Position numbers and translations under genes: made by a program | The notes under the pieces: model-generated | The model's input: the letters and a program-made list of their open reading frames with translations, nothing else | Told to the model about the DNA's origin: nothing | Databases searched by the model: none | From: Fidelibacterota bacterium | GTDB lineage: Bacteria > Fidelibacterota > UBA8477 > JABMPR01 | Assembly (NCBI GenBank): GCA_013203185.1 | Contig: JABMOS010000019.1 | Coordinates: 4,405 to 68,404 of the forward strand | Direction: 5' to 3' | DNA: 64,000 nt | Shown here: piece after piece, positions 45,554 through 61,315 of the stretch | Layout: every line of letters starts with the position of its first letter | How positions within the stretch are numbered: position 1 is the stretch's first letter

Positions 45554-48500
45554 TCAGCTTGTTCCCTGCGCCTTTAATTCCTGCATGGCAGGTTCAATAT
45601 CCTCTGGAGTAACACTTACCCCGTGATAAAGCTTCATCCACAGCACTCTAACCTTATTGGTCACAAGGTAACCGGCGGGTAAAACCACCAAGATAAGGAA
45701 GGTTCCAAAAAGTAGGCCGTAGGCCAGGGAAATCGCCATGGGAATCAGAAACTGGGCCTGGCGACTGGTTTCAAAAATTAATGGGGCTAATCCAAATGCA
45801 GTGGTGAAAGTGGTTAGTAGAATAGGTCGCAAACGGCTCACACCGGCATCAAATACAGCATCATACAACAGCATCCCCTCTCGCAGATTTCGATTGATCT
45901 TATCAACTAGAACAATGCTATCATTTACAATTATACCCGTGAGTGCAAGAATACCATATATGGAAAGCGTATTCACCTGAATGCCATGCAATCCGTGGCC
46001 CCAGAAGGCACCAATAACCCCAAAGGGAATTAAGCCAAAGATGAGTAGGGCCTGGATATAGGATCGGAAGACCAGGATCAAGAGAATGAACATCCCTGCA
46101 AACGCCAGAGGGAAAGTTCGCTGAAAACTGGCACCTGTCTTTGCCTGATCCCGGGATTGACCTTCATATGAGACCGTTACACCCTGAACCTGCCCCAGAA
46201 CCCTTGGTATCACCTGTTCACGAATCTCTGCCAAAATGGGAGGAAGATCCAGACTGGCGTCTGAGAGGTCAGCCTCAACGGTGAGCTCTCGTTTTTTATC
46301 CAGGTGGCTGATCGAGGTAATACCCCGCTTTAAAGTATACTCGGCCAGCTCGCCAAAGGGATATTCAGACCCATCTTGAGTCCTAATTTGCATGCGGTCA
46401 AGAAAACCGAGAGAGGAGCGATCCTCAGGTGAATATCTAACCCAGACACGCACCTCATCCTGACCACGCTGAATACGCTGAACTTCCTGGCCAAAGAAAC
46501 CCTGACGGACCTGCCCGGCCACATCTCTTAAAGTAAGGCCCAGTGAATATGCACGGGGTTTCAAGGAAATATCGATCTCCCGCCTGCCTTCTTTGCTACC
46601 CAGGGAGACATCTTGCAGAGTAGAGAATTGTTCAAGCTCCTCAGTAAGAAGAACACTGGCTTTTCTAAGTTCATCAATATTGCTACCCAGCAGACTTACC
46701 TGGACTGGCTTACCAAAGAAACTGGCCCGGCCAAATGATATCTTTTGCGCCTCTGGAACAGATCCGATGGCCTCTCGAAGCCTGTTGCCTATGATATAAC
46801 TATCCATACCTCTTTTCTCGCCATCCAGCAACTGCAAAGTCAATTTTCCAGCATGGCTCCCATTATCCCCAAAATCATTGGCGCCTATATCACGCTTGAT
46901 GCCCAGAATGAGTTGCTCCCCATCCTCGCGCTCAGCGCTCATCTCCGTATTGACCTCCCAAACCACGGTCTCAATCTTCCTTAATATCCGATCCACATCT
47001 GCCTCTTGTCGGCCAGCCACAAGGCTGACATTCACAGGCAGGGTATCTCCATCAATAAAAGGGAAAAATGTAAAACCGATGAAACCGCCGCTGAAAAGCC
47101 CCATAGTAACCAGTACTGTAGCAATCGGTGCACTAACAGTGATCCATTTGTGATCAAGGGCGAATTTTAAGGAGGGTGCATACATCCCATGGGTCATAAA
47201 ATGAATGATTTTTTCGATCCGTTTTCTCACCGCCGAATCTTTTGCGTGATCATGTAACCCTTTGGAGTGTGCCAGGTGGGCCGGAAGAATGAGAAATGAC
47301 TCTATGAGTGAAAAAATGAGAGCTGCAACAACTACTGCAGCCAGATTCCAGATAAAGCGACCTAAAAAACCATCCAGATAAAAGAAGGGAAGAAAGACCA
47401 GAATGGTTGTCATTACAGAAGTTGTGACTGGACCCACCATGATAATAGTTCCGTCAATGGCAGCCCGTATACCCTTTTTACCCTGCTCAAATTGAGAGAA
47501 GATTGATTCAGAGACAACGATTGCATCATCTACTAAAATTCCGATGACAATGATCATCCCAAAAAGGGAGATAACATTTAGAGTAATCCCGGCAAAACTT
47601 AAGACCAGGAACATACCTGCAAATGAGAAAGGAATACCTATGGCGACCCAGAAAGATATCCGTAGATTGAGGAAAAAGCTCAAACTCAGAACCACCAGAA
47701 TTAATCCGATAAACCCATTATTAATCAAGAGATCAATACGTTGCCGCAAGCTGATAGTATTGTCATTCAGCACCATGGCTTCTATGACCGTATTCTCCTC
47801 GTTAAATTCTATGACCATCTGCTTGGCCAGGGCAGCCACTTCAAGCACATTTTCTTCTTTGGTCTTGTCAATGTTCAAAACAACAGCTGTTTGATTGTTA
47901 TAATAGGTCTTATCAGGTGTGTCTGCCCAGCGCTCGCGAACAGTGGCTACATCTTTGAGATAGATCAGATTGCCATCACTATCCCCCCTAAGAACTAACT
48001 TTTCAAGATTTGCAGCTGTGTATTCCCTTCCATAGGCTCGAATGAGAATTTCTTCATCCAGGGTTTCAAATTTACCTCCGGATAGATTGACATTTTCAGC
48101 TTGTACTCTACGAGATATCTCATCAAAGGAGAGTTTATACCGCCTCAGATCCGCTTCAGAAACTTCAATTGAAATCTCAACACCTGGATATCCTTGAATA
48201 GCTACCTGGGAAATCGTAGGTGTTGCAATGAGACGGTCCCGTAAATCCTCGGCATAGATCTTCATTGTTCGAAGGTCTGTTTCTCCGAAGAGGACGATTG
48301 ATAGCGCTCGACTCCGAAATTTTCGCTGAAATACAACAGGTTTCTCTGCGCCAAGAGGGAAGGAACTGATACGATCCACTGCATTTTTAACTTCAGTTAG
48401 GACCTTGTCCATATCAGCACCACTGATGGTTTCCACACTTACAAGTCCAACATTTTCACTTGAGGTGGAAGTGACTCTGTCAATCCCATCCAGTCCATCC

Positions 48501-48715
48501 AGGTTTTCTTCTATTTTGAGGATCACACCTTCTTCAACTTCCTCAGGTGAAGCCCCAGGATAAAGAACTTGAATGGAAATCTGACTTGGTTCTATCTCCG
48601 GAAATGTTGAATATCGGAGATTACTGAGAGCGATCCCTCCAAACAACAATACCGAAAATAGCAAAACATTGGTCCAGATGGGGTACCGAGCAAAAAATTC
48701 AATGACACGTCTCAT
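45554..48715 (-). CDS. RND efflux permease (AcrB family), second copy
   Basis: 1053 aa. MRRVIEFFARYPIWTNVLLFSVLLFG. 12-TM/two-periplasmic-loop layout. Conserved GILVDDAIVVSESI and IIVNDSIVLVDKINR motifs. Confidence 0.9.
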   Translation of the reverse strand: MRRVIEFFARYPIWTNVLLFSVLLFGGIALSNLRYSTFPEIEPSQISIQVLYPGASPEEVEEGVILKIEENLDGLDGIDRVTSTSSENVGLVSVETISGADMDKVLTEVKNAVDRISSFPLGAEKPVVFQRKFRSRALSIVLFGETDLRTMKIYAEDLRDRLIATPTISQVAIQGYPGVEISIEVSEADLRRYKLSFDEISRRVQAENVNLSGGKFETLDEEILIRAYGREYTAANLEKLVLRGDSDGNLIYLKDVATVRERWADTPDKTYYNNQTAVVLNIDKTKEENVLEVAALAKQMVIEFNEENTVIEAMVLNDNTISLRQRIDLLINNGFIGLILVVLSLSFFLNLRISFWVAIGIPFSFAGMFLVLSFAGITLNVISLFGMIIVIGILVDDAIVVSESIFSQFEQGKKGIRAAIDGTIIMVGPVTTSVMTTILVFLPFFYLDGFLGRFIWNLAAVVVAALIFSLIESFLILPAHLAHSKGLHDHAKDSAVRKRIEKIIHFMTHGMYAPSLKFALDHKWITVSAPIATVLVTMGLFSGGFIGFTFFPFIDGDTLPVNVSLVAGRQEADVDRILRKIETVVWEVNTEMSAEREDGEQLILGIKRDIGANDFGDNGSHAGKLTLQLLDGEKRGMDSYIIGNRLREAIGSVPEAQKISFGRASFFGKPVQVSLLGSNIDELRKASVLLTEELEQFSTLQDVSLGSKEGRREIDISLKPRAYSLGLTLRDVAGQVRQGFFGQEVQRIQRGQDEVRVWVRYSPEDRSSLGFLDRMQIRTQDGSEYPFGELAEYTLKRGITSISHLDKKRELTVEADLSDASLDLPPILAEIREQVIPRVLGQVQGVTVSYEGQSRDQAKTGASFQRTFPLAFAGMFILLILVFRSYIQALLIFGLIPFGVIGAFWGHGLHGIQVNTLSIYGILALTGIIVNDSIVLVDKINRNLREGMLLYDAVFDAGVSRLRPILLTTFTTAFGLAPLIFETSRQAQFLIPMAISLAYGLLFGTFLILVVLPAGYLVTNKVRVLWMKLYHGVSVTPEDIEPAMQELKAQGTS

Positions 48716-48723
48716 GTTCGATC

Positions 48724-49887
48724 CTAGATCTCTACATCAAGACTTGGTATAGGTTTGGCCGGCATACCAGCTGAGACACCCTGGAGGAGCTCTGAAACCA
48801 ACGTGTCGCCAGGTGCCAATCCGTCATTGAGGATATAGAAGTCCCCTTCTTCAAAGGCTATTCCAATCTCCTGATAGACGAACTTTGAATCTTTCACCAA
48901 GAAAACATAGGACTCTTCATAAACCGCTTTTCGAGAAACTTTCATCGCATTAGGAATGTTTTTGGCCACGATATCAGCTCTTAGAAATATGCCGGCGGTA
49001 GGTGTCACATTTGCAGTGTCATCCAATTTTATGTAGGCAAATATTGACTGGGATCTTGTATCGATAACATTGCCAATCCGGTCGATATGACCCAGCCACT
49101 TGATGGAGCCATCTGGTGTGGTCAGATTCACTTTTGAATTGGCTTTGATCCAGGCGATATCAGCTGCAGGGACCTGTATTTCTACTTCCAGTTCATCCAG
49201 GTTGATGATTTCAGCCAGGCGAGTTCCAGGGGCAGCAGTGCTTCCTACTCTGAGCTGGGCACTGACGATGGAGCCGTTGAATGGAGCATAGAAATAGTGC
49301 TTGGCCGCACGAATCTCAAGATCTTGAACAGCAAAATATAATTTATAGATGTTATAGCGAGCCAGGAGGGCTTTTAATCTCTGGTCATCCGCGCCTGGGA
49401 GAGGTCCGATAGAATTGTCAAAATTGATGGAATCAAAATAGGTTTGCCACGTTTGAAAGATCTCAGGGGTACTGACCTTAATCTCTGGCATGAGGGTCGC
49501 GAGAGCAGTGAGTAGATCACTTTTTGTACTATTCAGCTGCAACTTGATCTGGCGGTCATCAACCTTGAGCAGGAGGTCTCCTTTTCTAAAGGATTGAGCC
49601 GGCTGGAATTTGATAGTACCAGGCTTGAGTGTCCCAGATACCTCGCTTATCAAACTCACTGGTTGACTCGAAGCAAGGGTTCCAAAGGTTGTTAGCCTGG
49701 CTTGAACATCCCCTAACTCTACGATCCGTGTTTCCACAAGACGCGGTTTAACCATGGCTGTACGTTTGGGCTGATCATCCTTAAAAGACGCAAGTACCTT
49801 CATGATCAGAAATGCGAGGATCAAGACAATCACAGGTGATACTACTATTAATTTGCGTTTCATTTTTTTCCTTTTTCCATCATCCAC
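48724..49887 (-). CDS. RND efflux periplasmic adaptor (MFP/HlyD family), second copy
   Basis: N-terminal TM anchor, lipoyl-like hairpin (FRKGDLLLKVDD ... YFYAPFNGSIV), beta-barrel C-terminus. 8 nt upstream of the RND gene. Confidence 0.8.
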   Translation of the reverse strand: MDDGKRKKMKRKLIVVSPVIVLILAFLIMKVLASFKDDQPKRTAMVKPRLVETRIVELGDVQARLTTFGTLASSQPVSLISEVSGTLKPGTIKFQPAQSFRKGDLLLKVDDRQIKLQLNSTKSDLLTALATLMPEIKVSTPEIFQTWQTYFDSINFDNSIGPLPGADDQRLKALLARYNIYKLYFAVQDLEIRAAKHYFYAPFNGSIVSAQLRVGSTAAPGTRLAEIINLDELEVEIQVPAADIAWIKANSKVNLTTPDGSIKWLGHIDRIGNVIDTRSQSIFAYIKLDDTANVTPTAGIFLRADIVAKNIPNAMKVSRKAVYEESYVFLVKDSKFVYQEIGIAFEEGDFYILNDGLAPGDTLVSELLQGVSAGMPAKPIPSLDVEI

Positions 49888-51768: not shown

Positions 51769-51803
51769 GCACCCTGTTTTTAATACTAATTCAGGGTGCT
51801 TTT
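51769..51803 (+). terminator. Terminator hairpin after the yceI-like gene
   Basis: GCACCCTG (51769..51776) pairs with CAGGGTGC (51792..51799), followed by TTTTG. Confidence 0.55.
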
Positions 51804-51863
51804 GTTAAGTTGAACCACCTTACAATCACAAAGAAAATAGAATACTAAGGCTTTGAATCAGTT

Positions 51864-53138
51864 ATGACAATTTCAGGGGAAAATCAGGATTTAAGAGGGC
51901 TGTTTATTGACAGGTACAATAGGGTTCGAGGATTTACCGAGCAACTATGTGAGCCCCTGGAGAAGGAAGATTATGTCATCCAATCCATGCCTGATGTAAG
52001 CCCAACACGCTGGCACCTGGCCCATACCAGCTGGTTTTTTGAAACCTTTATACTCAAACCAGAACTCAAGAATTATAAGACCCCGAACGAGCTCTACAAT
52101 TATCTCTTCAACTCCTACTATAATGCAGTTGGTCAACAGTTCCCACGGCCTCAAAGAGGACTCCTGAGCCGTCCAACCGTTAAGGAAGTTTTTGCCTATC
52201 GTCATCATGTCGATGAGGAAATGCTTCGCCTTTTTGAGACGCTAGATGAACACAAAATATCGGCGCTTGAATCAATTCTTATTTTAGGTTTAAACCATGA
52301 GCAGCAGCACCAGGAACTCATGCTCACTGATATCAAGCATGTCTTTTTTAAAAATCCGCTTTACCCGTCCTACTCTCAAATTGTTCAGGTAAATGGGTCA
52401 CACAGCTCCGAAGAATTACAGTGGTCATCTTTCCCAGGCGCGCGGGTTCAACATGGATTCTCAGGAGGCAGCTTCAGTTTTGACAATGAAACACCCCGAC
52501 ATGATGTTCTCATTCAACCTTTTGAATTAGGCAATCGGCTTGTGACCAACCGCGAGTATCTGTCGTTCATGGGAGATGGCGGATATAGTCAGGCAGCTCT
52601 CTGGCTTTCTGATGGGTGGGCATTGATCAATAAAGACAACTGGAAAGCCCCCTTATATTGGGTTAAAAATGATGAAAATTGGTTTGAGTTTACCCTTGGC
52701 GGTCTCTCTCCGCTTCATCTTGACAACCCCGTCGCTCATATCAGTTATTATGAAGCTGATGCTTTTGCAAACTGGAGTGGGGCGCGACTACCCAGCGAAC
52801 ATGAGTGGGAATGCGCTGCACAAAATATCCAAATCCAGGGCAACTTTGTTCAGAGCCAATTATTTCAGCCTGCGCCATCAGATTCACCCACCAAATTAAG
52901 TCAAATGTTTGGGGATGTCTGGGAATGGACCCGCAGTCCCTACTCTCCCTATCCTGGATTTAAATCTGCCAGTGGTGCTGTCGGTGAATACAATGGGAAA
53001 TTCATGTCCAACCAAATGGTATTGCGGGGTGGCTCCTGCGTTAGCAGCTGTGACCATTTGCGACACACGTACCGTAACTTCTTTTATCCCCACTCACGCT
53101 GGCAGTTTATGGGCATTCGCCTAGCCAGGGATGTATAG
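51864..53138 (+). CDS. egtB: Ergothioneine biosynthesis sulfoxide synthase EgtB (DinB-like plus FGE-sulfatase-like domains)
   Basis: DinB-type metal site blocks SPTRWHLAHTSWFFETF and LNHEQQHQELMLTDIKH. FGE-like C-terminal domain (VTNREYLSFM, YYEADAFANWSGARLPSEHEWE, GDVWEWTRSPYSPYPGF, VLRGGSCVS). At 424 aa it lacks the extra methyltransferase domain of OvoA. Confidence 0.85.
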   Translation: MTISGENQDLRGLFIDRYNRVRGFTEQLCEPLEKEDYVIQSMPDVSPTRWHLAHTSWFFETFILKPELKNYKTPNELYNYLFNSYYNAVGQQFPRPQRGLLSRPTVKEVFAYRHHVDEEMLRLFETLDEHKISALESILILGLNHEQQHQELMLTDIKHVFFKNPLYPSYSQIVQVNGSHSSEELQWSSFPGARVQHGFSGGSFSFDNETPRHDVLIQPFELGNRLVTNREYLSFMGDGGYSQAALWLSDGWALINKDNWKAPLYWVKNDENWFEFTLGGLSPLHLDNPVAHISYYEADAFANWSGARLPSEHEWECAAQNIQIQGNFVQSQLFQPAPSDSPTKLSQMFGDVWEWTRSPYSPYPGFKSASGAVGEYNGKFMSNQMVLRGGSCVSSCDHLRHTYRNFFYPHSRWQFMGIRLARDV

Positions 53139-53147
53139 GACCTCCTT

Positions 53148-53993
53148 ATGACTTCACCGAAAACGCCCTGGAAGCAACTGCTACCCCTCAATGACAATCG
53201 ACTATTAGAGGCCCGAGGACAACTCCACCAGGCTGTTCAACTCCTGACTGCTGTGAATATTTCTTTTGTTGAGCACAAGGCTGATGATAGCCATACAGCA
53301 CTTCTGTGGGATTCTGACTCCCTGACTTTTTTGAGTCAACCCTTTGGACCTGGAAATAATTTTCAGATCGGCTTACGTCCGGAGGATTTAGCGTGCCTTG
53401 TCTTTCAAAATAATGAGATGTTATTAAATCTGAGATTGAATGGAACAACGCTGGAACAGGTTGCTTCAGATTTACAGTTCTTTCTGGAAGACCACGGCCT
53501 CACCAGGAATGTCTTTACCATGGAGAGACATTTTGAATTGCCAGCCTATCCAGATCGCTGGGCCAGTCCCTTCGATACATCGGATCAGGCTGCATTTGAT
53601 GTGCTTTCTAATGCCTATGCCAACGCATATCCAATGATCAATGAAATTGCCCACAAAGATAGCAGGGCTAGCACTCTGTTAACATGGCCCCATCATTTTG
53701 ACATGGCTGTTTTAATGACTCCCAGCGAGGGGAAATCCATCGGTGTGGGTATGTCACCTGGAGATGCCAGCTATACGAAACCCTACTACTATGTAAATAC
53801 TTGGCCTTACCCATCTGATGATCAAGTGAATGATAGACCTCTCACCTTTGGTAAGTGGCACACCGAAGACTGGAAGGGCATGGTCTTAACTCTGGATCAA
53901 ATCGATAATGCGAAAAAACCCGAAGCGCAAAAATCAATAGTGGAAACATTTCTAAAGGACTCCCTACACCACGCAACAGAGATTACTGAGTAA
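53148..53993 (+). CDS. Hypothetical protein inside the egt operon (possibly DUF5996-like, unverified)
   Basis: No signal peptide and no motif I can assign with confidence. Weak resemblance to my recollection of DUF5996 (WPHHFDMAVL, KPYYYVNTWPYP). 9 nt after egtB and 13 nt before the ABC ATPase. Confidence 0.5.
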   Translation: MTSPKTPWKQLLPLNDNRLLEARGQLHQAVQLLTAVNISFVEHKADDSHTALLWDSDSLTFLSQPFGPGNNFQIGLRPEDLACLVFQNNEMLLNLRLNGTTLEQVASDLQFFLEDHGLTRNVFTMERHFELPAYPDRWASPFDTSDQAAFDVLSNAYANAYPMINEIAHKDSRASTLLTWPHHFDMAVLMTPSEGKSIGVGMSPGDASYTKPYYYVNTWPYPSDDQVNDRPLTFGKWHTEDWKGMVLTLDQIDNAKKPEAQKSIVETFLKDSLHHATEITE

Positions 53994-54006
53994 GCCGCCA
54001 TATCGT

Positions 54007-54759
54007 ATGATACAACTTCGGGACATTAGCAAAAGTTTTAACGGGCATGAGGTCATTCATGACCTCTCTCTTGAGATACCTCAAGGCCAGACGGTGGTTC
54101 TCATTGGTCCCAGTGGATGTGGAAAATCTACACTCCTGAGACTCATGATCGGATTGTTATGGCCTGACAAGGGCAATATCTCTCTTTTTCAACAGGACTT
54201 ATCCAAAACCAATGTTGAAAAACTGCGCCAACAAGTAGGTTTTGTACTCCAGGATGGTGGATTGTTCCCCCATTTGACTGCAGTCCAGAACATGCGCCTT
54301 ATGGCAGACTATTTACATCATGATCCAAAGAAAATTGAACATCGTATTGCTGAATTATGTGAATTGACCCATATCTCTTCAGACCTGCTAAAACACTATC
54401 CCACTGAGTTATCAGGAGGTCAGGTTCAACGGATCGCCCTCATGCGTGCTCTCATGCTGGATCCCCAGATATTGTTTTTAGATGAACCATTGGGAGCGCT
54501 GGACCCCCTGAATAGGGTCAGTTTGCAGGAAGAGATGAAGAGTATCTTTAGTCAACTGGGGAAAACTGTGGTCCTGGTGACCCATGATATGGGGGAAGCT
54601 GCCTCGCTTGCTGACTTGATTGTGATAATGAAAGATGGTTATCTGCTTCAATATGATACCCTCTCCAATCTTTCAGCCCAGCCTGCAGATCCCTTTGTTA
54701 CCGAATTTATAAATGCCCAGAGAAAACCCTGGCAGCTCCTTGAGGATCAGATAAAATGA
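54007..54759 (+). CDS. ABC transporter ATP-binding protein, OpuBA/OpuCA (quaternary amine) type without CBS domains
   Basis: Walker A GPSGCGKST, Q-loop, signature LSGGQ, Walker B ILFLDEP, H-loop VTHD. The C-terminal PADPFVTEFI is typical of the betaine/choline family. ATGA overlap with the next gene. Confidence 0.85.
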   Translation: MIQLRDISKSFNGHEVIHDLSLEIPQGQTVVLIGPSGCGKSTLLRLMIGLLWPDKGNISLFQQDLSKTNVEKLRQQVGFVLQDGGLFPHLTAVQNMRLMADYLHHDPKKIEHRIAELCELTHISSDLLKHYPTELSGGQVQRIALMRALMLDPQILFLDEPLGALDPLNRVSLQEEMKSIFSQLGKTVVLVTHDMGEAASLADLIVIMKDGYLLQYDTLSNLSAQPADPFVTEFINAQRKPWQLLEDQIK

Positions 54760-56267
54760 AGCGTCTGGTCACTTTCACTTATCTGCTCTTGAGTATGCTT
54801 TTCGCAGATATTGCACAGGCAGAATCTGCTTCAGAGATTCGAATAGGGTCAAAGAAGTTCACTGAATCAGTGATTTTGAGTGAACTTATCACCCAACACC
54901 TCCAAAACAACAATGTTTCAGCATCACACAAAGATCAACTTGGTGGAACCCGATTGCTCTGGAATGCTCTGGTCCAGGGGGAACTGGATATCTATCCCGA
55001 CTATACAGGCACGATTATATACGAAATACTGCAAGGTAATGAGATTTCATCAGATGCAGATATCAAGGCTGCTCTTGCTCAGTATGGCGTGAGTATGACA
55101 GATCCTTTGGGTTTCAATAATACTTATGCCCTGGGGGTTACACCGCCGACTGCTAGAAAGTTCTCACTCGAAAAGATTAGCGATTTAGAACAACATCCCA
55201 AACTCAAGTTTGGTTTTACCAATGAGTTTATGGATCGTGAGGATGGGTGGCCCGGCCTAAGAAATCATTACCAACTACCCCAAACCGAAGTCCGCGGTTT
55301 AGATCATGACCTGGCATATAAGGGGCTGGAGGCAGGCTCCATTGACCTCATTGATCTCTATTCAACGGATGCTGAAATCGCCTATTATCAATTAAGTGTT
55401 TTGGAAGATGACAAGAGCTACTTCCCTGATTACCGAGCAGTAATACTCTATAGAACTGATCTGCTAGATCGCTCCCCAGGGGTTCAAAACTATTTAGCTC
55501 AGCTAAGTGGAAGTATTTCAGAGACTGAGATGATCCAGATGAATTCTGCCGTCAAATTGGATGGTCACAGTGAGGCTGAAGTAGCACAGAGTTTCTTGAA
55601 TATTAAGTTTAATACGCTCTCCAAAATCAAAGTCTCTACAAGACTTGACCGATTAATCGCAACCACATCAGAGCATTTATTCCTGGTCTGTATTTCTCTG
55701 GGCGCGGCCATTCTGGTAGCCATTCCCCTGGGGATCTGGGGCGCCAGGAATGAAACCCTAGGTCAGATTATTCTTAGTATAGTGGGTATTATACAGACCA
55801 TACCTTCACTGGCATTGCTGGTTTTCATGATCCCTCTCCTGGGAATTGGTGGACCACCTGCACTGGTAGCCTTATTCCTCTATAGCCTGCTTCCTATCGT
55901 ACGAAATACTTTAAGTGGTTTAACGGGACTTCCCCTTGCGGTACAGGAATCAGCTCGAGCCCTTGGTCTACCCCCAGCAGCTCAACTAAGACTAATCGAA
56001 CTCCCCCTGGCTGCTCGTTCGATTCTGGCAGGCATAAAAATATCAGCAGTTATTAATGTCGGTACGGCAACGCTGGGCGCTTTGATTGGCGCAGGTGGAT
56101 ATGGCCAACCTATACTCACCGGAATTAGACTGGACGATACCAGCCTCATTCTCGAAGGTGCAATTCCGGCTGCGGTTCTTGCGCTGCTTGTTCAATGGAG
56201 TTTTGATTTTGCTGAACGCACTTTACTCTCACCTGGATTACAAAGGAAACAGGATTCTGTATCATGA
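54756..56267 (+). CDS. Fused substrate-binding domain (N-terminal) and permease (C-terminal) of an OpuB/OpuC-type quaternary-amine ABC transporter
   Basis: Signal peptide. SBP block IRIGSKKFTESVILSELI...LGGTRLLWNALVQGELDIYPDYTGTI. Then a 5-6 TM permease with IPSLALLVFMIPLLGIGGPPALVALFLYSLLPIVRNT and the EAA-like ESARALG. ATGA overlap with egtD. Confidence 0.8.
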   Translation: MKRLVTFTYLLLSMLFADIAQAESASEIRIGSKKFTESVILSELITQHLQNNNVSASHKDQLGGTRLLWNALVQGELDIYPDYTGTIIYEILQGNEISSDADIKAALAQYGVSMTDPLGFNNTYALGVTPPTARKFSLEKISDLEQHPKLKFGFTNEFMDREDGWPGLRNHYQLPQTEVRGLDHDLAYKGLEAGSIDLIDLYSTDAEIAYYQLSVLEDDKSYFPDYRAVILYRTDLLDRSPGVQNYLAQLSGSISETEMIQMNSAVKLDGHSEAEVAQSFLNIKFNTLSKIKVSTRLDRLIATTSEHLFLVCISLGAAILVAIPLGIWGARNETLGQIILSIVGIIQTIPSLALLVFMIPLLGIGGPPALVALFLYSLLPIVRNTLSGLTGLPLAVQESARALGLPPAAQLRLIELPLAARSILAGIKISAVINVGTATLGALIGAGGYGQPILTGIRLDDTSLILEGAIPAAVLALLVQWSFDFAERTLLSPGLQRKQDSVS

Positions 56268-57286
56268 CTGAAACACTTAGTTCACCCCAGATTATCAAGG
56301 CTCAAGATCATATTGAAAACCCGACTATGGCTTTTGCCAAGGACGTACTTACAGGGCTAAACAAATCACCCAAGCGGCTGTCTTCTGTCTATTTCTATGA
56401 TGAACGCGGCTCCCAAATATTTGAAGAAATTTGCGATCTCGAGGAATATTATCTCACACGAAAGGAAACTGAAATTCTTCAGCGTTCTGCAGCAGAAATC
56501 ATTTCAAAACTGCCTCCCAACACCCATCTCGTGGAATTGGGAAGTGGTAGCTCAACAAAAACCAGGATATTGTTGGAAGCAGCCCTGGCAAGCTTTGGCA
56601 CTACTCAATATTCACCCATCGATGTTTCAGCTGAAATCCTGACAGATACCGTGAAAGATCTCAACCAGCGCTATCCAGATCTCCAGTTGGAAGCCATCGC
56701 AGGCCGCTATGAGTTTGGTATGGATTATATCCTTAAAAACAGCACCTCATCCAAATGTATTATGTGGCTAGGTTCCAGTATTGGAAATTTAACCCGAATT
56801 GAAGCAGCACAATTTTTGCGTGAAGTCCGCAAAACCATGGGTGATCAGGACAGCTTGCTCCTGGGAATTGATCTCCGTAAAGGACCTGAAATTCTGGAAC
56901 CAGCATATGATGATGCCCAAGGTGTCACCGCTGACTTCAACCTGAATTTACTTGATCGTATCAACTCTGAGTTGGGTGGTACTTTTAAGCGTAACAACTT
57001 CCACCATCAGGCTGTTTATAATGTCGATGAAGGTCGTATAGAAATGTATCTGGTCAGCGACATCGACCAGGAAACAGAAATCAAAAATATTGGAGCCAAA
57101 ATCTCATTCCATAAGGATGAGAAAATCTTGACTGAATATTCATATAAGTATTCACACTCTGAAATTACGGCTCTCGCAGAAGCCTCAGGCTTTTTTCTGG
57201 AGCAACAATGGTTGGATGATTCCGGCTGGTTTAGTCTGAATTGTTTTAAACCCCAAACTAACGCGGCTGAATTGCGCGCCCTATAA
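56264..57286 (+). CDS. egtD: L-histidine N-alpha-methyltransferase EgtD (hercynine synthase)
   Basis: YFYDERGSQIFEEICDLEEYYLTRKETEIL, LVELGSGSSTKTRILLEA, YSPIDVS, WLGSSIGN, ..TEYSYKY: the canonical EgtD/dimethylhistidine methyltransferase blocks. Confidence 0.85.
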   Translation: MTETLSSPQIIKAQDHIENPTMAFAKDVLTGLNKSPKRLSSVYFYDERGSQIFEEICDLEEYYLTRKETEILQRSAAEIISKLPPNTHLVELGSGSSTKTRILLEAALASFGTTQYSPIDVSAEILTDTVKDLNQRYPDLQLEAIAGRYEFGMDYILKNSTSSKCIMWLGSSIGNLTRIEAAQFLREVRKTMGDQDSLLLGIDLRKGPEILEPAYDDAQGVTADFNLNLLDRINSELGGTFKRNNFHHQAVYNVDEGRIEMYLVSDIDQETEIKNIGAKISFHKDEKILTEYSYKYSHSEITALAEASGFFLEQQWLDDSGWFSLNCFKPQTNAAELRAL

Positions 57287-57297
57287 AGGAGTATCAA

Positions 57298-57579
57298 ATG
57301 AAAGCCATTTGGAACGACAAAATTATTGCTGAAAGTGACAAAACCATCATCATCGAAGGGAATCATTATTTCCCTGTTGAATCAGTGAATCCCACATATC
57401 TCAAAGACAGTGAAACCCATACTATCTGCCACTGGAAAGGAACTGCTAGCTATCACCACATTGAAGTAGATGGCCAGGATAACCCAGATGCCGCATGGTA
57501 CTACCCGGACCCCTTAGATGCTGCTCAACCTATCAAAGACCATATTGCCTTTTGGAAGGGTGTCGAAGTTATCCAGTAG
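57298..57579 (+). CDS. DUF427 domain protein
   Basis: IAESDKTIIIEGNHYFP...V.......S.THT.C.WKG.ASYH.I.V.G..N.DAAWYYPDP...A..IK..IAFW.GV matches the DUF427 pattern; 93 aa. Confidence 0.7.
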   Translation: MKAIWNDKIIAESDKTIIIEGNHYFPVESVNPTYLKDSETHTICHWKGTASYHHIEVDGQDNPDAAWYYPDPLDAAQPIKDHIAFWKGVEVIQ

Positions 57580-57779
57580 TCCTCAATAGACTGGATAGTA
57601 CTTGCACAGCTTTCAATCATCCCTAAAATATGAGCACGCTTTAATAATCGTATCTTGGTCCTGCTGATTTACTCCATCAATATTTTTCTATTGGTGAATT
57701 AAAGTGCAGGACAGTTCTCTAAAAGCAGGTATTTGAGAGTAACAATTCTCAGATCAATCATAATGAAAAGGAAAACAGC

Positions 57780-58394
57780 ATGAAAAAAGTATCATTTAGT
57801 ATTTTGTTTGTTTTGTTAAGTGTTGGCCTCTTTGCAGGTCTTCCTGTTGGTGAGAATGCACCTCTCCTGGAGCTCTCCGGTGACGCTGGAGGTAGAGTGG
57901 ATGATACTGCATGGAGCAGCAGTGAACTAGTTGGAAAAGTTTGGGTGGTTGTCCATGCCGATCCAGATGAGAGTGAAATGAACAATGCAGCCACAGAAGC
58001 TTTAAAGGCTAAAGATTATGATTTAGACTATTACGGTTCTGTTGCCCTGATAAACATGGCCGCAACCTGGAAACCAAATTTTGCCATCAACCTGATTCTT
58101 ACAGGAAAACAGAAGGACTATCCCAGTACCGTCTATGTACGCGACAATGACAACCTGGTGGGCGAAAAATGGGGTCTGGCAAATGACTCAAACAACATGG
58201 TCGTTTTTGATCCCACAGGGAGAGTGATTTTTAGTGTGGATGGTCAGGTTTCCGACAATGATATCAAAAAGATGATCGCTATGATCAATGTTGAAATTGA
58301 ATTATTGAGAAACCCCCCCCCTCCACCAGAAGAAGAAGTTGATGAGACCATGGAAATGGAAGAAGCTGCAGAAGATACCGAGGCCACTGAATAG
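57780..58394 (+). CDS. YtfJ-family periplasmic (thioredoxin-fold-like) protein with Pro/Glu-rich tail
   Basis: Signal peptide. Colinear with my recollection of E. coli YtfJ (W.S..LVGKV.V..H.A.......N......A.KA........Y......IN...A........ ... VV.D..GRV.....G). C-terminal NPPPPPEEEVDETMEMEEAAEDTEATE. Confidence 0.55.
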   Translation: MKKVSFSILFVLLSVGLFAGLPVGENAPLLELSGDAGGRVDDTAWSSSELVGKVWVVVHADPDESEMNNAATEALKAKDYDLDYYGSVALINMAATWKPNFAINLILTGKQKDYPSTVYVRDNDNLVGEKWGLANDSNNMVVFDPTGRVIFSVDGQVSDNDIKKMIAMINVEIELLRNPPPPPEEEVDETMEMEEAAEDTEATE

Positions 58395-58420
58395 TTAAAA
58401 AATAAGCCCTAATCGTTATA

Positions 58421-58454
58421 AAAAGACCATCTGTCACCAGGTGGTCTTTTTTTT
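58421..58454. terminator. Bidirectional rho-independent terminator
   Basis: AAAA-GACCATCTG-tcac-CAGGTGGTC-TTTTTTTT (9-bp stem with one G-U), between convergent genes. Confidence 0.8.
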
Positions 58455-58459
58455 AATCT

Positions 58460-59248
58460 TTACCAGTCAATTCCTCCTGGACAGGTAATCCAGATGCACA
58501 ATTTGGGCGGGAGTTTTTGCTGCTTTTTCAAGTAACTGAATAAGGTACCCATAAAAATTGGATCCCAAGTTTGACCAGTCACTTTGCGCACATCCCTCAT
58601 CACCTTTATGCGCTCCTTTAGGCCTGGTTTCCAGAGACCGGCTGATTTCCTTAGACTCATATATTTAAGAATTCGTATCCCCAAGGGTTGCGTTAATACA
58701 CCGGTTACACCATCAGTTTGCCGGGCAATACTTGTGAGGAGATCACCAGAAGCTACTGCCACCACATGGTGAAAATCTTCGCCAGTTGTCTTGATCGTTT
58801 CTTTCACGGCATTTTGAGTGGGAAGATCAGATCCAAGGCTCCCGCCAATGCTCATAAAATGATGTCCAGATCTAGCTTTTCTTTTTTGCCTGTTAAACGC
58901 CAAACTCATAGACCATGAAGAATCCACCTTTTGGATGATGTTCTCTCGAGAATCTAGTAATGTGGTCATGGCTTTTTCGTAAGGTCCTCCTCCATAGTGG
59001 GTACCATAAAGATGGATCATCACCTCAGGCAAGAGGCTGGATAGCGTATAGGCAGTATGGGAACCTGCATAAGAAAGCAAGTGGATGTGTTTTACATCTT
59101 CAAGTTCTTGTACAAATTGCTCAAGAGCGCGTCTTTTTTTACCGCCACCATCTGGGAGTAAATCCTCACGAACAAGGGCTACTTGCTCAACGTTCAACCA
59201 TCGTGCTAACTTCTGGTCAAACTCGATCTGAGTCGATAGCGTGGTCAT
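58460..59248 (-). CDS. Short DcyD/ACC-deaminase-like (fold-type II PLP) protein
   Basis: Blocks parallel to D-cysteine desulfhydrase as recalled: VREDLLPDGGGKKRRALEQF (cf. KRDD..P...GGNKLRKLEF, PLP lysine), SIGGSLGS (cf. PVGGSNALG), VVAVASGD, DPIFMGTLF (cf. DPVYTGKA), WITCPGG (cf. FIHTGG). Only 262 aa. Confidence 0.45.
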   Translation of the reverse strand: MTTLSTQIEFDQKLARWLNVEQVALVREDLLPDGGGKKRRALEQFVQELEDVKHIHLLSYAGSHTAYTLSSLLPEVMIHLYGTHYGGGPYEKAMTTLLDSRENIIQKVDSSWSMSLAFNRQKRKARSGHHFMSIGGSLGSDLPTQNAVKETIKTTGEDFHHVVAVASGDLLTSIARQTDGVTGVLTQPLGIRILKYMSLRKSAGLWKPGLKERIKVMRDVRKVTGQTWDPIFMGTLFSYLKKQQKLPPKLCIWITCPGGIDW

Positions 59249-60300
59249 CTTGCTAATAGTTTTGACAGCCTTGGCGCTACATATTGAGAACCAATCATAA
59301 ACTTCATTGGGGGCCCAAAGAACATTTCTGTTGAGGGTCCGATAAAGTATAAGTCCCGCATGGAACTCATAAAATTTTTGTCAATACGGGGCATGGCAGC
59401 TCTCATTTCAAGGCTATTTCGCAAATCTTCAGCCAAAAAACTCATATGATTTAGCGTGTAATTGTAGCCTGTAGCAGAAATGACATGATCATAGTTATTT
59501 AAATCCGGTAAGCTTGAAAACCTGTCAACATCAGCCAGCTTAATTTTGTGATCCGGCGTCATGGTGGTTGCAGAAAATATCGAGAACAAATATTGAACGA
59601 GACGATGAGGTAAGCGTCGGAAGAGACCTGCACTTTTTACAACCAGGTTGAATATCCATTTAGGCAGATCCAATGGTTCAGAGTAGAACCGGGGTTCTTT
59701 TCGGGCATACCAATGAACCTGGTTATCATTTTTCCTGCAAACTTCCATGGCTTCTGCTGCGGATTGCCCCGCACCAACAACCAATACCCTTTTTCCCTGT
59801 AAGGCTTCGATTTCCTGGGTGTAATAGCTGTGAATGACATCACTGGCCTCAGAGAATTCTGTTGGAACATTAAGATGGTGTGCCACACCAGTGGCAATCA
59901 CCACTTGTTTGGCTTCCAAGACTGCTCCAGATTCCAGTTCTGCCTGGAAATAGCTCTTTTTCTTTGACAGATTCGCCAAATATTCTGGTTGAATATCATA
60001 GGGTACTTGAGCCAACACCCACTCAACGTATTGACGGTATTCCTTTACACCTATGCGTTCACTTGATATACCTATGGGGAGGCCATTTTTTGCGCGAAAG
60101 TTTTGTATGGAATAGGTGCGATGTGGATGAGCAATTTCTGAAGTTGCCATTTCTGATCGTAATGAGGCATCTGTGAAAGTATGATTTCTCCAGAGCTCCA
60201 TGGGCTTGCCAATTATCTTAAAATCCAACCCTAATTCTGACATGTAGTTCGCCAGGGATAGGCCATATGGTCCTGCTCCCACGATTAATACTGGAATCAT
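59245..60300 (-). CDS. FAD/NAD(P)-binding oxidoreductase, flavin monooxygenase-like
   Basis: Two Rossmann dinucleotide motifs: N-terminal MIPVLIVGAGPYGLSLA and central KRVLVVGAGQSAAE, plus an ATG motif (VISATGY). Start placed at 60300 (GGGAG upstream, 4 nt after the Lgt-like stop); the ORF opens at 60339. 4-nt overlap with the downstream gene. Confidence 0.7.
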   Translation of the reverse strand: MIPVLIVGAGPYGLSLANYMSELGLDFKIIGKPMELWRNHTFTDASLRSEMATSEIAHPHRTYSIQNFRAKNGLPIGISSERIGVKEYRQYVEWVLAQVPYDIQPEYLANLSKKKSYFQAELESGAVLEAKQVVIATGVAHHLNVPTEFSEASDVIHSYYTQEIEALQGKRVLVVGAGQSAAEAMEVCRKNDNQVHWYARKEPRFYSEPLDLPKWIFNLVVKSAGLFRRLPHRLVQYLFSIFSATTMTPDHKIKLADVDRFSSLPDLNNYDHVISATGYNYTLNHMSFLAEDLRNSLEMRAAMPRIDKNFMSSMRDLYFIGPSTEMFFGPPMKFMIGSQYVAPRLSKLLAR

Positions 60301-60304
60301 ATTG

Positions 60305-61315
60305 TCACCAACTCCCAATTTTTCTGCCATGGGTTCCATAGGCCAACCCCATTATCACTGGAGCCAGGATGAGCACACCAAGGCTAGCCCGCAGACTCTG
60401 GAAACCGCTGCTAAGACTAACTTCTGCTACTGAAAACCCGCCCATAAATACATAGACCATGATCCCGAAACTCAGAACCATAAATGATACGCTAAACCAT
60501 TGCCAGATAGTCAACCCGAAAAAATAAACTCTGGGAAATTCACCCCGTAAAAACTCAATAGTAAAGCGTTTTATTCCATATAGTCCCATATAGATAGCAG
60601 CCAACATACCAATTGGCCGGCCATCCCAGAATAGGCTTAGCGATAGTATCGATAAGTAAATAGCTGTATTGACCAGCACTGAATACAGTTGGGTCGGATG
60701 CAATCGCTTGCCTCTAAGTTCTGGATTAAAGCGCAACACCTTTGTCCTGGAATCGAAGTAGCGAATTCCTGGCTGATGATCAGTAGTACATTCTCTTCCA
60801 TGGCAGCATCCATAGTTCAGACATCCTAATCGTCCAAATGCTTGAGCTAATGGGACACCCAGTGCGAAGGCATCCAGAAGTGCCAACATGGGGATATTGT
60901 TAAAAGAGGCGAAAGCTGTTATCATTAGCAATCCTCCCGTAAGACTACCCCACAATCCAAAACTTACAGTACGGATATACTCAATAAATGTTTTTTCACC
61001 TGAGAGCCAAGTTTTTATATCTAAAAATCTTGTCATTATATATCCAGATACGGGTGCCACCAGTGCGATGAATAAGGCGAGTTGACTAATCTGGAAATTT
61101 TGAGGTACAATCTGGTAGGCCCCCAGGTAAAAGATGACATGGAGAGCGGCCAATAAGGTTCCCACACCTACAAATAGACCAAAACCCACTAGAGTGAAGG
61201 ATTGCCCCTGATATAGTACAACAGGACCAAAATCACCACCCCCGGTGAGCGACTTTGCTCTCGCCCCTCCGGTATCCGTTAAACCGTCTATCGTTTCTAC
61301 TCGTTCATTCATCAT
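60305..61315 (-). CDS. Divergent prolipoprotein diacylglyceryl transferase (Lgt) family membrane protein
   Basis: Polytopic. Lgt-like blocks AFGRLGCLNYGCCHGR (cf. E. coli GAGRLGNFINGELWGR), LHPTQLYSVL (cf. RHPSQLYEL), GLYGIKRFTIEFLR (cf. GYGAFRIIVEFFR). The Asn and Glu of the signature motif are replaced by Cys. Confidence 0.6.
   Translation of the reverse strand: MMNERVETIDGLTDTGGARAKSLTGGGDFGPVVLYQGQSFTLVGFGLFVGVGTLLAALHVIFYLGAYQIVPQNFQISQLALFIALVAPVSGYIMTRFLDIKTWLSGEKTFIEYIRTVSFGLWGSLTGGLLMITAFASFNNIPMLALLDAFALGVPLAQAFGRLGCLNYGCCHGRECTTDHQPGIRYFDSRTKVLRFNPELRGKRLHPTQLYSVLVNTAIYLSILSLSLFWDGRPIGMLAAIYMGLYGIKRFTIEFLRGEFPRVYFFGLTIWQWFSVSFMVLSFGIMVYVFMGGFSVAEVSLSSGFQSLRASLGVLILAPVIMGLAYGTHGRKIGSW

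Follow-up and report, generated by a model that had tools for sequence, protein, structure and literature searches.

Bacterial ergothioneine biology is at present pictured as a division between producers and non-producing bacteria that import the compound through EgtU. Published work on EgtU treats uptake by non-producers, and in it Lmo1422/BilEB of Listeria monocytogenes was demonstrated to bind ergothioneine and OpuF of Bacillus infantis was regarded as an EgtU by Zhang et al. (PMC9732360). Here we describe a related transporter that lies instead within a producer's ergothioneine biosynthetic (egt) operon, in a 64,000-nucleotide stretch of DNA from a Fidelibacterota bacterium (contig JABMOS010000019.1, positions 4,405 to 68,404; hereafter the window). 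Judged from sequence comparison and gene context, we think it reasonably probable that this transporter serves to salvage histidine betaines, the group of hercynine, ergothioneine and, in other hosts, selenoneine.

What is new here is that an importer akin to EgtU, with its domains in the opposite order and with another pocket, occurs in producers. Full-text searches, which did not cover the Cell 2022 EgtUV paper, turned up no account of a betaine-type importer within an egt or selenoneine (sen) cluster. A selenoneine preprint reports a putative selenate transporter and occasional egtD co-localisation, with nothing further of this kind, and the paper on the ergothioneine synthase MES mentions no such transporter (PMC9516567). 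Within the literature searched, the arrangement is therefore undescribed, as a first-pass annotation made from the letters of the window had supposed.

The egt operon and its transporter

The operon consists of six plus-strand open reading frames (ORFs), spanning 51864-57579, in which a fusion of a substrate-binding domain (SBD) and a permease is placed between its ATPase and egtD:

51864..53138, plus strand: egtB, a type II sulfoxide synthase, Chloracidobacterium-like (TIGR03440, 578 bits, cutoff 360)
53148..53993, plus strand: DUF5996-family protein of 281 amino acids (aa), a candidate accessory or processing enzyme (Pfam, 24 bits, just below the cutoff of 25)
54007..54759, plus strand: ABC ATPase of 250 aa, nucleotide-binding domain only (PF00005/ABC_tran, 128 bits)
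54756..56267, plus strand: SBD-permease fusion of 503 aa (OpuAC at residues 27-281, 195 bits; BPD_transp_1 at residues 322-487, 74 bits)
56264..57286, plus strand: egtD, the histidine N-alpha-trimethyltransferase producing hercynine (TIGR03438, 363 bits, cutoff 291)
57298..57579, plus strand: DUF427 protein of 93 aa (PF04248, 112 bits)

Direct reading of the junctions gave intergenic spacings of 9, 13 and 11 nt and two ATGA overlaps (54756-54759 and 56264-56267), the second of which couples the transporter tightly to egtD. Together with the ORFs and profile searches, this upheld the first-pass annotation on the six genes, their identities, coordinates, strand, gaps and overlaps, and on the tight coupling. 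An identical transporter protein is annotated in NCBI under a Candidatus Marinimicrobia metagenome-assembled genome (MAG), and the same operon is present on a JGI metagenome contig.

EgtD and EgtB both exceeded their curated equivalog cutoffs, which places the operon with the two-gene aerobic pathway. EgtB carries DinB_2 and FGE-sulfatase Pfam domains and has its nearest solved structures in C. thermophilum EgtB (6o6l/6qki/8qf6, E ~1e-150), with the mycobacterial enzyme at 5e-39 (4x8b); type II EgtB enzymes use cysteine directly. EgtD aligned over its full length with mycobacterial EgtD structures (E ~1e-57). A NifS-domain query found no class-V aminotransferase within the 64-kb window that might serve as the EgtE-like, pyridoxal phosphate-dependent C-S lyase of the last step, so the lyase may be encoded elsewhere in the genome or may be of another, unrecognised kind.

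An ABC_tran ATPase, a BPD_transp_1 permease and an extracytoplasmic binding domain are encoded together in the operon, as in type I binding-protein-dependent importers. OpuAC precedes BPD_transp_1 in the fusion, confirming the SBD-then-permease order recorded in the first pass, and the membrane domain of an AlphaFold2 (AF2) model (pLDDT 77.5) has five long helices at residues ~296-490. A signal peptide is predicted at residues 1-22, with cleavage after AQA, and the topology we infer is a cleaved signal peptide, a periplasmic SBD and an N-out five-helix permease. The fusion belongs to a very large family with at least 8000 database proteins at E <= 1e-20, including homologues of ~60% identity in Scalindua, KSB1, Calditrichota, Poribacteria and Thermodesulfobacteriota, and extensive stretches of the binding domain are invariant across it.

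Type I binding-protein-dependent ABC systems import their substrates, and such an architecture with a MetI-like permease points to import as the direction of transport here. The first pass had listed export among its options, and a pump that exports ergothioneine from the producing cell would accord with the reported secretion of ergothioneine by producers, for which no exporter is known (PMC12689799). With its signal-peptide SBD, BPD_transp_1 permease and small ATPase, the system has the build of a type I importer, and we regard export as highly improbable.

The ATPase covers just positions 7-233 of the 363-position ProV model. In osmoregulated relatives the C-terminal region of ProV holds a CBS module, and the 250-aa protein lacks this tandem module of ProU/OpuA/OpuC-type ATPases, so osmotic strength probably does not control the pump. 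The same feature speaks against an ordinary glycine/proline-betaine osmoprotectant importer of the AfProX/OpuC kind, which would stand beside egtD through a shared betaine or stress theme and share no substrate with it, since the module is usual in osmoregulated ProV/OpuA-type ATPases. On all the evidence, including points in its favour that come from the binding pocket, we consider such an importer unlikely.

Linkage of the transporter to egtD

Gene order is conserved in relatives (L083-L087) with transporters 69-86% identical to the one described here. Contigs with transporters of 86%, 74% and 71% identity keep egtB-(DUF5996)-ATPase-fusion-egtD-DUF427, with the DUF5996 gene missing in one, and two metagenome loci with transporters of 83% (L086) and 69% (L087) identity have the same order.

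A forward survey, in which an alignment of 20 members of the family was searched against a single genome for each GTDB species, yielded 80 transporter loci from many phyla (53-63% identity), nearly all with the ATPase gene directly upstream of the fusion gene. The EgtD profile located egtD within ~4 kb of the transporter, usually within 2.3 kb, in 21 of the 80 loci (26%), and in 14 of the 53 loci that extend 4 kb or more to either side. If genes were placed at random in genomes of a few Mb, well under 1% would be expected, and the linkage is thus far above chance. Hosts of linked loci include Dadabacteria, Planctomycetota, Thermodesulfobacteriota, Binatia, Acidobacteriota, Myxococcota, Bacteroidota, Latescibacterota and Gammaproteobacteria, and egtBD may be upstream, downstream or convergent relative to the transporter.

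When neighbouring ORFs were clustered, the only families found in at least five of the 80 loci, the ATPase aside, were EgtD, EgtB and DUF427. Antisense shadow ORFs of high-GC loci (clusters 2 and 4) were discarded, and the counts rest on tblastn and hidden Markov model (HMM) searches. Minor recurrent neighbour families were unrelated where annotated, and none of these was a betaine-catabolic or osmoregulatory family of the kind that might accompany an osmoprotectant importer.

The enzyme that accompanies EgtD differs by locus. A systematic search found SenA/SenB adjoining the transporter in L006, L009, L073, L079 and L102/L103 and MES adjoining it in L007, L050, L088, L099 and L100, with EgtB in most of the remaining linked loci. 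Genes that tblastn had returned as distant EgtB-like sequences proved to be SenA of the selenoneine pathway, above the NCBIfam cutoff (NF041186), and L006 also encodes SenB; selenoneine-type loci include L006:8013-11288, from an oxygen-deficient-zone MAG, and L073:2565-5383. In a Candidatus Scalindua locus, a fusion of a molybdopterin oxidoreductase and a NifS-type desulfurase directly follows the EgtD homologue; the anaerobic ergothioneine synthase MES is built in this way (PMC9516567). Transporter, EgtD homologue and fusion likewise occur in MES-type loci including L007:9601-14517, L050:2366-9434, L099 and L100. A further contig (L167:1-5781) carries egtB, egtD, a GCS2-family gene (EgtA-like glutamate-cysteine ligase), the ATPase and the SBD-permease fusion in one operon, so the transporter also accompanies a gamma-glutamylcysteine-type pathway. 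The common denominator of the linked clusters is EgtD and its product hercynine, and the variety of partners is the strongest point for a real linkage. The first pass would have taken a lack of synteny in every relative as a refutation; synteny is instead present in L083-L087, and linkage of transporter and egtD extends over at least ten phyla and three sulfur- or selenium-inserting enzymes.

In a reverse survey, metagenomes were scanned with an EgtD alignment, giving 80 egtD loci (40-84% identity). An OpuAC-type binding domain or permease was encoded in 26 of these, eleven belonging to the SBD-permease family described here and about fifteen to a second family, and several further contigs end directly after an ATPase gene that follows egtD. 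Members of the second family occur in compact egtD-ATPase-transporter operons with unrelated flanks and have the permease before the SBD, which is the order of EgtU (Pfam, L112:9352-10914). Association with egtD has thus arisen independently in two transporter lineages. Soil contigs L107, L112, L116, L119, L122, L130, L134, L155 and L164 (e.g. L112:7561-10917) carry the second-family operon as three genes with no EgtB in view, and the pocket positions of the transporter read K D F G N Y T F N F D R L N Y. A related variant of the second family adjoins SenA in L162 and L165.

An osmoprotectant importer leaves unexplained why egtD dominates the neighbourhood across at least ten phyla, several gene orders and three partner enzymes, and why an independent transporter family also stands beside it. 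The transporter might instead bring in choline, glycine betaine or some other quaternary amine to supply methyl groups, helping to regenerate the three S-adenosylmethionine (SAM) used by EgtD per hercynine. It is indeed with EgtD, the SAM-consuming step, that the transporter is most regularly linked, including in minimal egtD and transporter operons. Such a role is, however, an indirect idea for which we know of no precedent, and genes for betaine-homocysteine methyltransferase, choline oxidation or demethylation do not recur beside the transporter, making it an improbable explanation.

The binding pocket compared with EgtU and AfProX

The binding domain was compared with EgtU of S. pneumoniae (SPD_1642-1643), L. 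monocytogenes (BilEB) and H. pylori, and its residues were mapped by HMMER alignment to SpEgtUC:

54834..55598, plus strand: binding domain proper of the SBD-permease fusion

Its best PDB sequence matches are Lmo1422/BilEB (2.9e-48) and SpEgtU(C) (~1e-44), followed by OpuBC-derived sensors, H. pylori EgtU, AfProX (7e-33) and OpuCC/OpuBC, and it is ~38% identical to EgtU domains. A fold search with the AF2 model returned the same set with EgtU structures at the top, although the full-length search does not separate EgtU, OpuBC, OpuCC and AfProX, all of which have target-normalised TM scores of 0.80-0.87 against a moderate model (pLDDT 77.5). The first pass had assigned the transporter to the same family as EgtU, and this assignment holds, given a shared binding-protein subcluster and EgtU domains as the top PDB hits both by sequence and by fold.

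Fifteen pocket positions (K33, K34, F35, G64, T65, Y83, T86, F120, N122, Y124, E157, R161, H184, Y202 and Y226) are near-invariant over the 80 homologues, egt-linked or not, with the exception of position 34. Compared with the ligand contacts listed for SpEgtUC (PMC9732360), the domain retains nine in all: the carboxylate clamp K33/T86/R161 (SpEgtU K242/T296/R379), the cage residues N122/Y124/Y202/Y226 (N339/Y341/Y419/Y443), T65 (T275) and E157 (E375). The domain thus belongs to PF04069, subcluster F-III (OpuAC, 195 bits), and has the aromatic cage and the K/T/R clamp for the carboxylate that mark EgtU-type importers. The two systems also share an SBD fused to the permease, a separate small ATPase, and conservation of the cage, the clamp and a Glu/Arg pair. 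They differ in domain order: EgtU has the permease first (EgtUBC order), whereas here a signal peptide and SBD precede the five-helix permease. Bacillus OpuF is likewise a fusion of an SBD and a permease of the same Pfam families, but it too has the permease first.

Several features of the pocket and of its distribution weigh against a histidine-betaine importer. G244 and the F293/Y337 'Y-to-F switch' were singled out as determinants of ergothioneine specificity in SpEgtU, and a G244F substitution lowers affinity ~100-fold (PMC9732360). The equivalents here are F35, Y83 and F120, the AfProX state, and this holds family-wide, with Y83 in 80 of 80 homologues, F120 in all but one and F35 in nearly all; the second transporter family likewise has K-x-F, Y and F at these positions. 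The side chain of SpEgtU I243 is a CH-S donor to the thione sulfur and is important for sulfur recognition (PMC12922746). The equivalent residue here is K34, and the family as a whole has K, L, S, N, Q, G, T, A or D. An invariant His (H184) replaces P401 of SpEgtU, and the retained E157 is not diagnostic because AfProX has an analogous Glu. With AfProX-state residues at the SpEgtU specificity positions, a dedicated ergothioneine specificity of the EgtU kind cannot be claimed. The dedicated ergothioneine or hercynine function proposed in the first pass therefore retains the support of egtD linkage and loses that of EgtU-kind specificity. A pocket identical to that of betaine binders, which the first pass would have counted as part of a refutation, is present in part, with cage and clamp as in EgtU and diagnostic positions like those of AfProX.

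AfProX, which binds glycine and proline betaine, shares with the transporter a four-tyrosine cage, the K-x-F motif (Lys13 and Phe15), the Thr and Arg for the carboxylate (Thr66 and Arg149) and a Phe at the equivalent of position 107. In the N-lobe the motifs of the two proteins are almost the same (GSKKFTE...LGGT...YPDYTGT here vs GSKPFNE...LGGT...YVEYTGT in AfProX). For this comparison the N-lobe was aligned directly, and C-lobe residues were matched transitively through SpEgtU using published equivalences (PMC9732360). The AfProX-like state of the positions that divide EgtU from betaine binders favours an osmoprotectant importer, as do higher N-lobe scores against OsmF and AfProX than against EgtU. 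Overall similarity to AfProX is lower, with E 7e-33 vs 3e-48 for BilEB, and ProX is a separate binding protein. We know of no gene link between ProX and egt.

In addition, 74% of the homologous loci have no egt gene within 8 kb and share the same pocket, which again suits an osmoprotectant importer. No alignment column separating egt-linked from unlinked members was found among the 80 homologues; the nearest neighbour of a linked member was itself linked for 15 of 22 linked members, vs 5.9 expected. Either the whole transporter family has a histidine-betaine role or none of it does. The near-invariant pocket and the lack of a separating column suggest that the family probably has a single specificity, which could be for a small betaine on an AfProX-like reading of the pocket or for a histidine betaine on a reading from gene context.

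Proposed salvage role, accessory genes and surroundings

In the salvage model that we favour, the operon makes ergothioneine, with EgtD turning histidine into hercynine and the type II EgtB adding sulfur. By homology, the fusion protein would lose its signal peptide, and its SBD would stay periplasmic through its attachment to the five-helix permease of the same chain. The trimethylammonium group would be held in a four-tyrosine cage (Y83, Y124, Y202 and Y226) together with N122, and the carboxylate would be clamped by K33, T86 and R161. Two fusion proteins and two 250-aa ATPase subunits would form the pump and drive import with ATP. The cell could then 'make or take', either recapturing leaked product or taking up hercynine, which is both the precursor and an oxidation product of ergothioneine. 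Imported hercynine would be re-sulfurised by EgtB, and each molecule would spare three SAM.

This salvage logic is inferred by analogy with other systems. Recapture of self-made compatible solutes such as ectoine and proline is established, and salvage importers inside biosynthetic operons are known. The same logic would apply here, in that the genes for synthesis are expressed together with a high-affinity importer for a product or intermediate of that very pathway, and we found none described for ergothioneine, hercynine or selenoneine.

Within the salvage model we lean, from context, toward a preference for hercynine or a broad histidine-betaine specificity over a strict specificity for ergothioneine. 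We do so because the features by which SpEgtU recognises sulfur are either missing here or free to vary, because minimal egtD and transporter modules exist, because hercynine is the shared intermediate of three linked pathways and is described as an oxidation product or marker of ergothioneine, and because each hercynine imported saves three SAM. A more specific version, which we put forward only tentatively and think less likely to be right than wrong, is that the SBD-permease family and the second, permease-SBD family are both hercynine-preferring importers that form a 'make-or-take hercynine' module with EgtD, with the DUF5996 protein as a new enzyme, or a partner, that works on what the pump brings in. 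Such a module may feed the host's own chalcogen-inserting enzyme, whether EgtB, SenA or MES, and ergothioneine oxidised to hercynine outside the cell may be re-imported and re-sulfurised.

If betaine-type importers do accompany between a quarter and a third of environmental egtD loci, producers would also take up what they make or the compound they make it from. Soils and oceans would then see an exchange of hercynine, ergothioneine and selenoneine, and oxidised ergothioneine would be recycled. As a candidate for the first hercynine transporter, the protein is open to direct test, and the two families provide two new binding-domain scaffolds for dissecting sulfur recognition. There is also a possible bearing on fermentative production, as re-uptake lowers what is secreted.

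The survey further places the DUF5996 and DUF427 families in the neighbourhood of the ergothioneine pathway, as candidates for accessory steps. All 580 homologues of the DUF5996 protein are unnamed or annotated 'hypothetical protein', and profile searches gave no PDB match and nothing above the curated Pfam/NCBIfam cutoffs. A Foldseek search with a confident AF2 model (pLDDT 94.6) found no significant PDB fold match (best E 7e-3, TM 0.10). Invariant residues are H27, D47, H49, W180-P-H-H-F-D185 and G205-D206. Among five contigs looked up with distant homologues, three have the gene beside the same transporter family: in L166 and L169 it is directly upstream of the ATPase-fusion pair with no egt genes, and in L167 it is divergent from the egtB-egtD-GCS2-ATPase-fusion operon; the remaining two homologues are located elsewhere. 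A profile search also found DUF5996 in L038, L040 and L048. The invariant His/Asp cluster, the lack of a solved fold relative and the repeated adjacency to the transporter even without egt genes are our reasons for considering the protein a new enzyme or partner. The sole solved relative of the DUF427 protein is the uncharacterised 3djm. DUF427 adjoins egtD and/or the transporter in L012, L013, L035, L050, L133 and L152; in L035 it follows the transporter with no egtD in view.

Boundaries of the transcription unit were assigned from hairpins and the downstream gene:

51769..51806, plus strand: terminator-like hairpin closing the upstream yceI, the likely 5' boundary of the egt unit
57780..58394, plus strand: ytfJ-family secreted protein, a possible seventh gene of the unit (PF09695, 64 bits)
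58420..58451, plus strand: strong terminator-like hairpin 3' of ytfJ (14-bp stem, then a T-run), where the unit probably ends

In the 5' hairpin, GCACCCTG pairs with CAGGGTGC to form an 8-bp G+C-rich stem with a 15-nt loop, followed by TTTTGTT. It was found by direct reading, as its loop exceeds the 8 nt allowed by our hairpin scan. The scan detected no terminator-like site between DUF427 and ytfJ (57579-57780), and with the strong hairpin after ytfJ this suggests that the egt transcription unit may include ytfJ and count seven genes. Relatives L083, L085 and L087 retain ytfJ downstream. The C-terminal tail of the YtfJ-family protein (57780-58394) is Pro-rich and strongly acidic (PPPPPEEEVDETMEMEEAAEDTEATE).

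Other neighbouring genes were also noted. Convergent to the operon on the minus strand (58460-60339) are an unannotatable 262-aa ORF and a 364-aa flavoprotein, both kept in L083 and L085. The flavoprotein has weak matches (<= 47 bits, far below cutoffs) to YpdA-type putative bacillithiol disulfide reductase, ArsO and thioredoxin reductase, and a role in thiol-disulfide chemistry is a guess. A short-chain dehydrogenase gene is directly upstream of egtB in a Marinimicrobia relative (L085:2435-3112), and one is directly upstream of a DUF5996 gene in an unrelated contig (L168:4269-4991). Upstream of the yceI-egt region, the minus strand at 45554-49887 encodes an RND efflux pump (1053 aa) and a 387-aa partner, likewise in L083 and L084.

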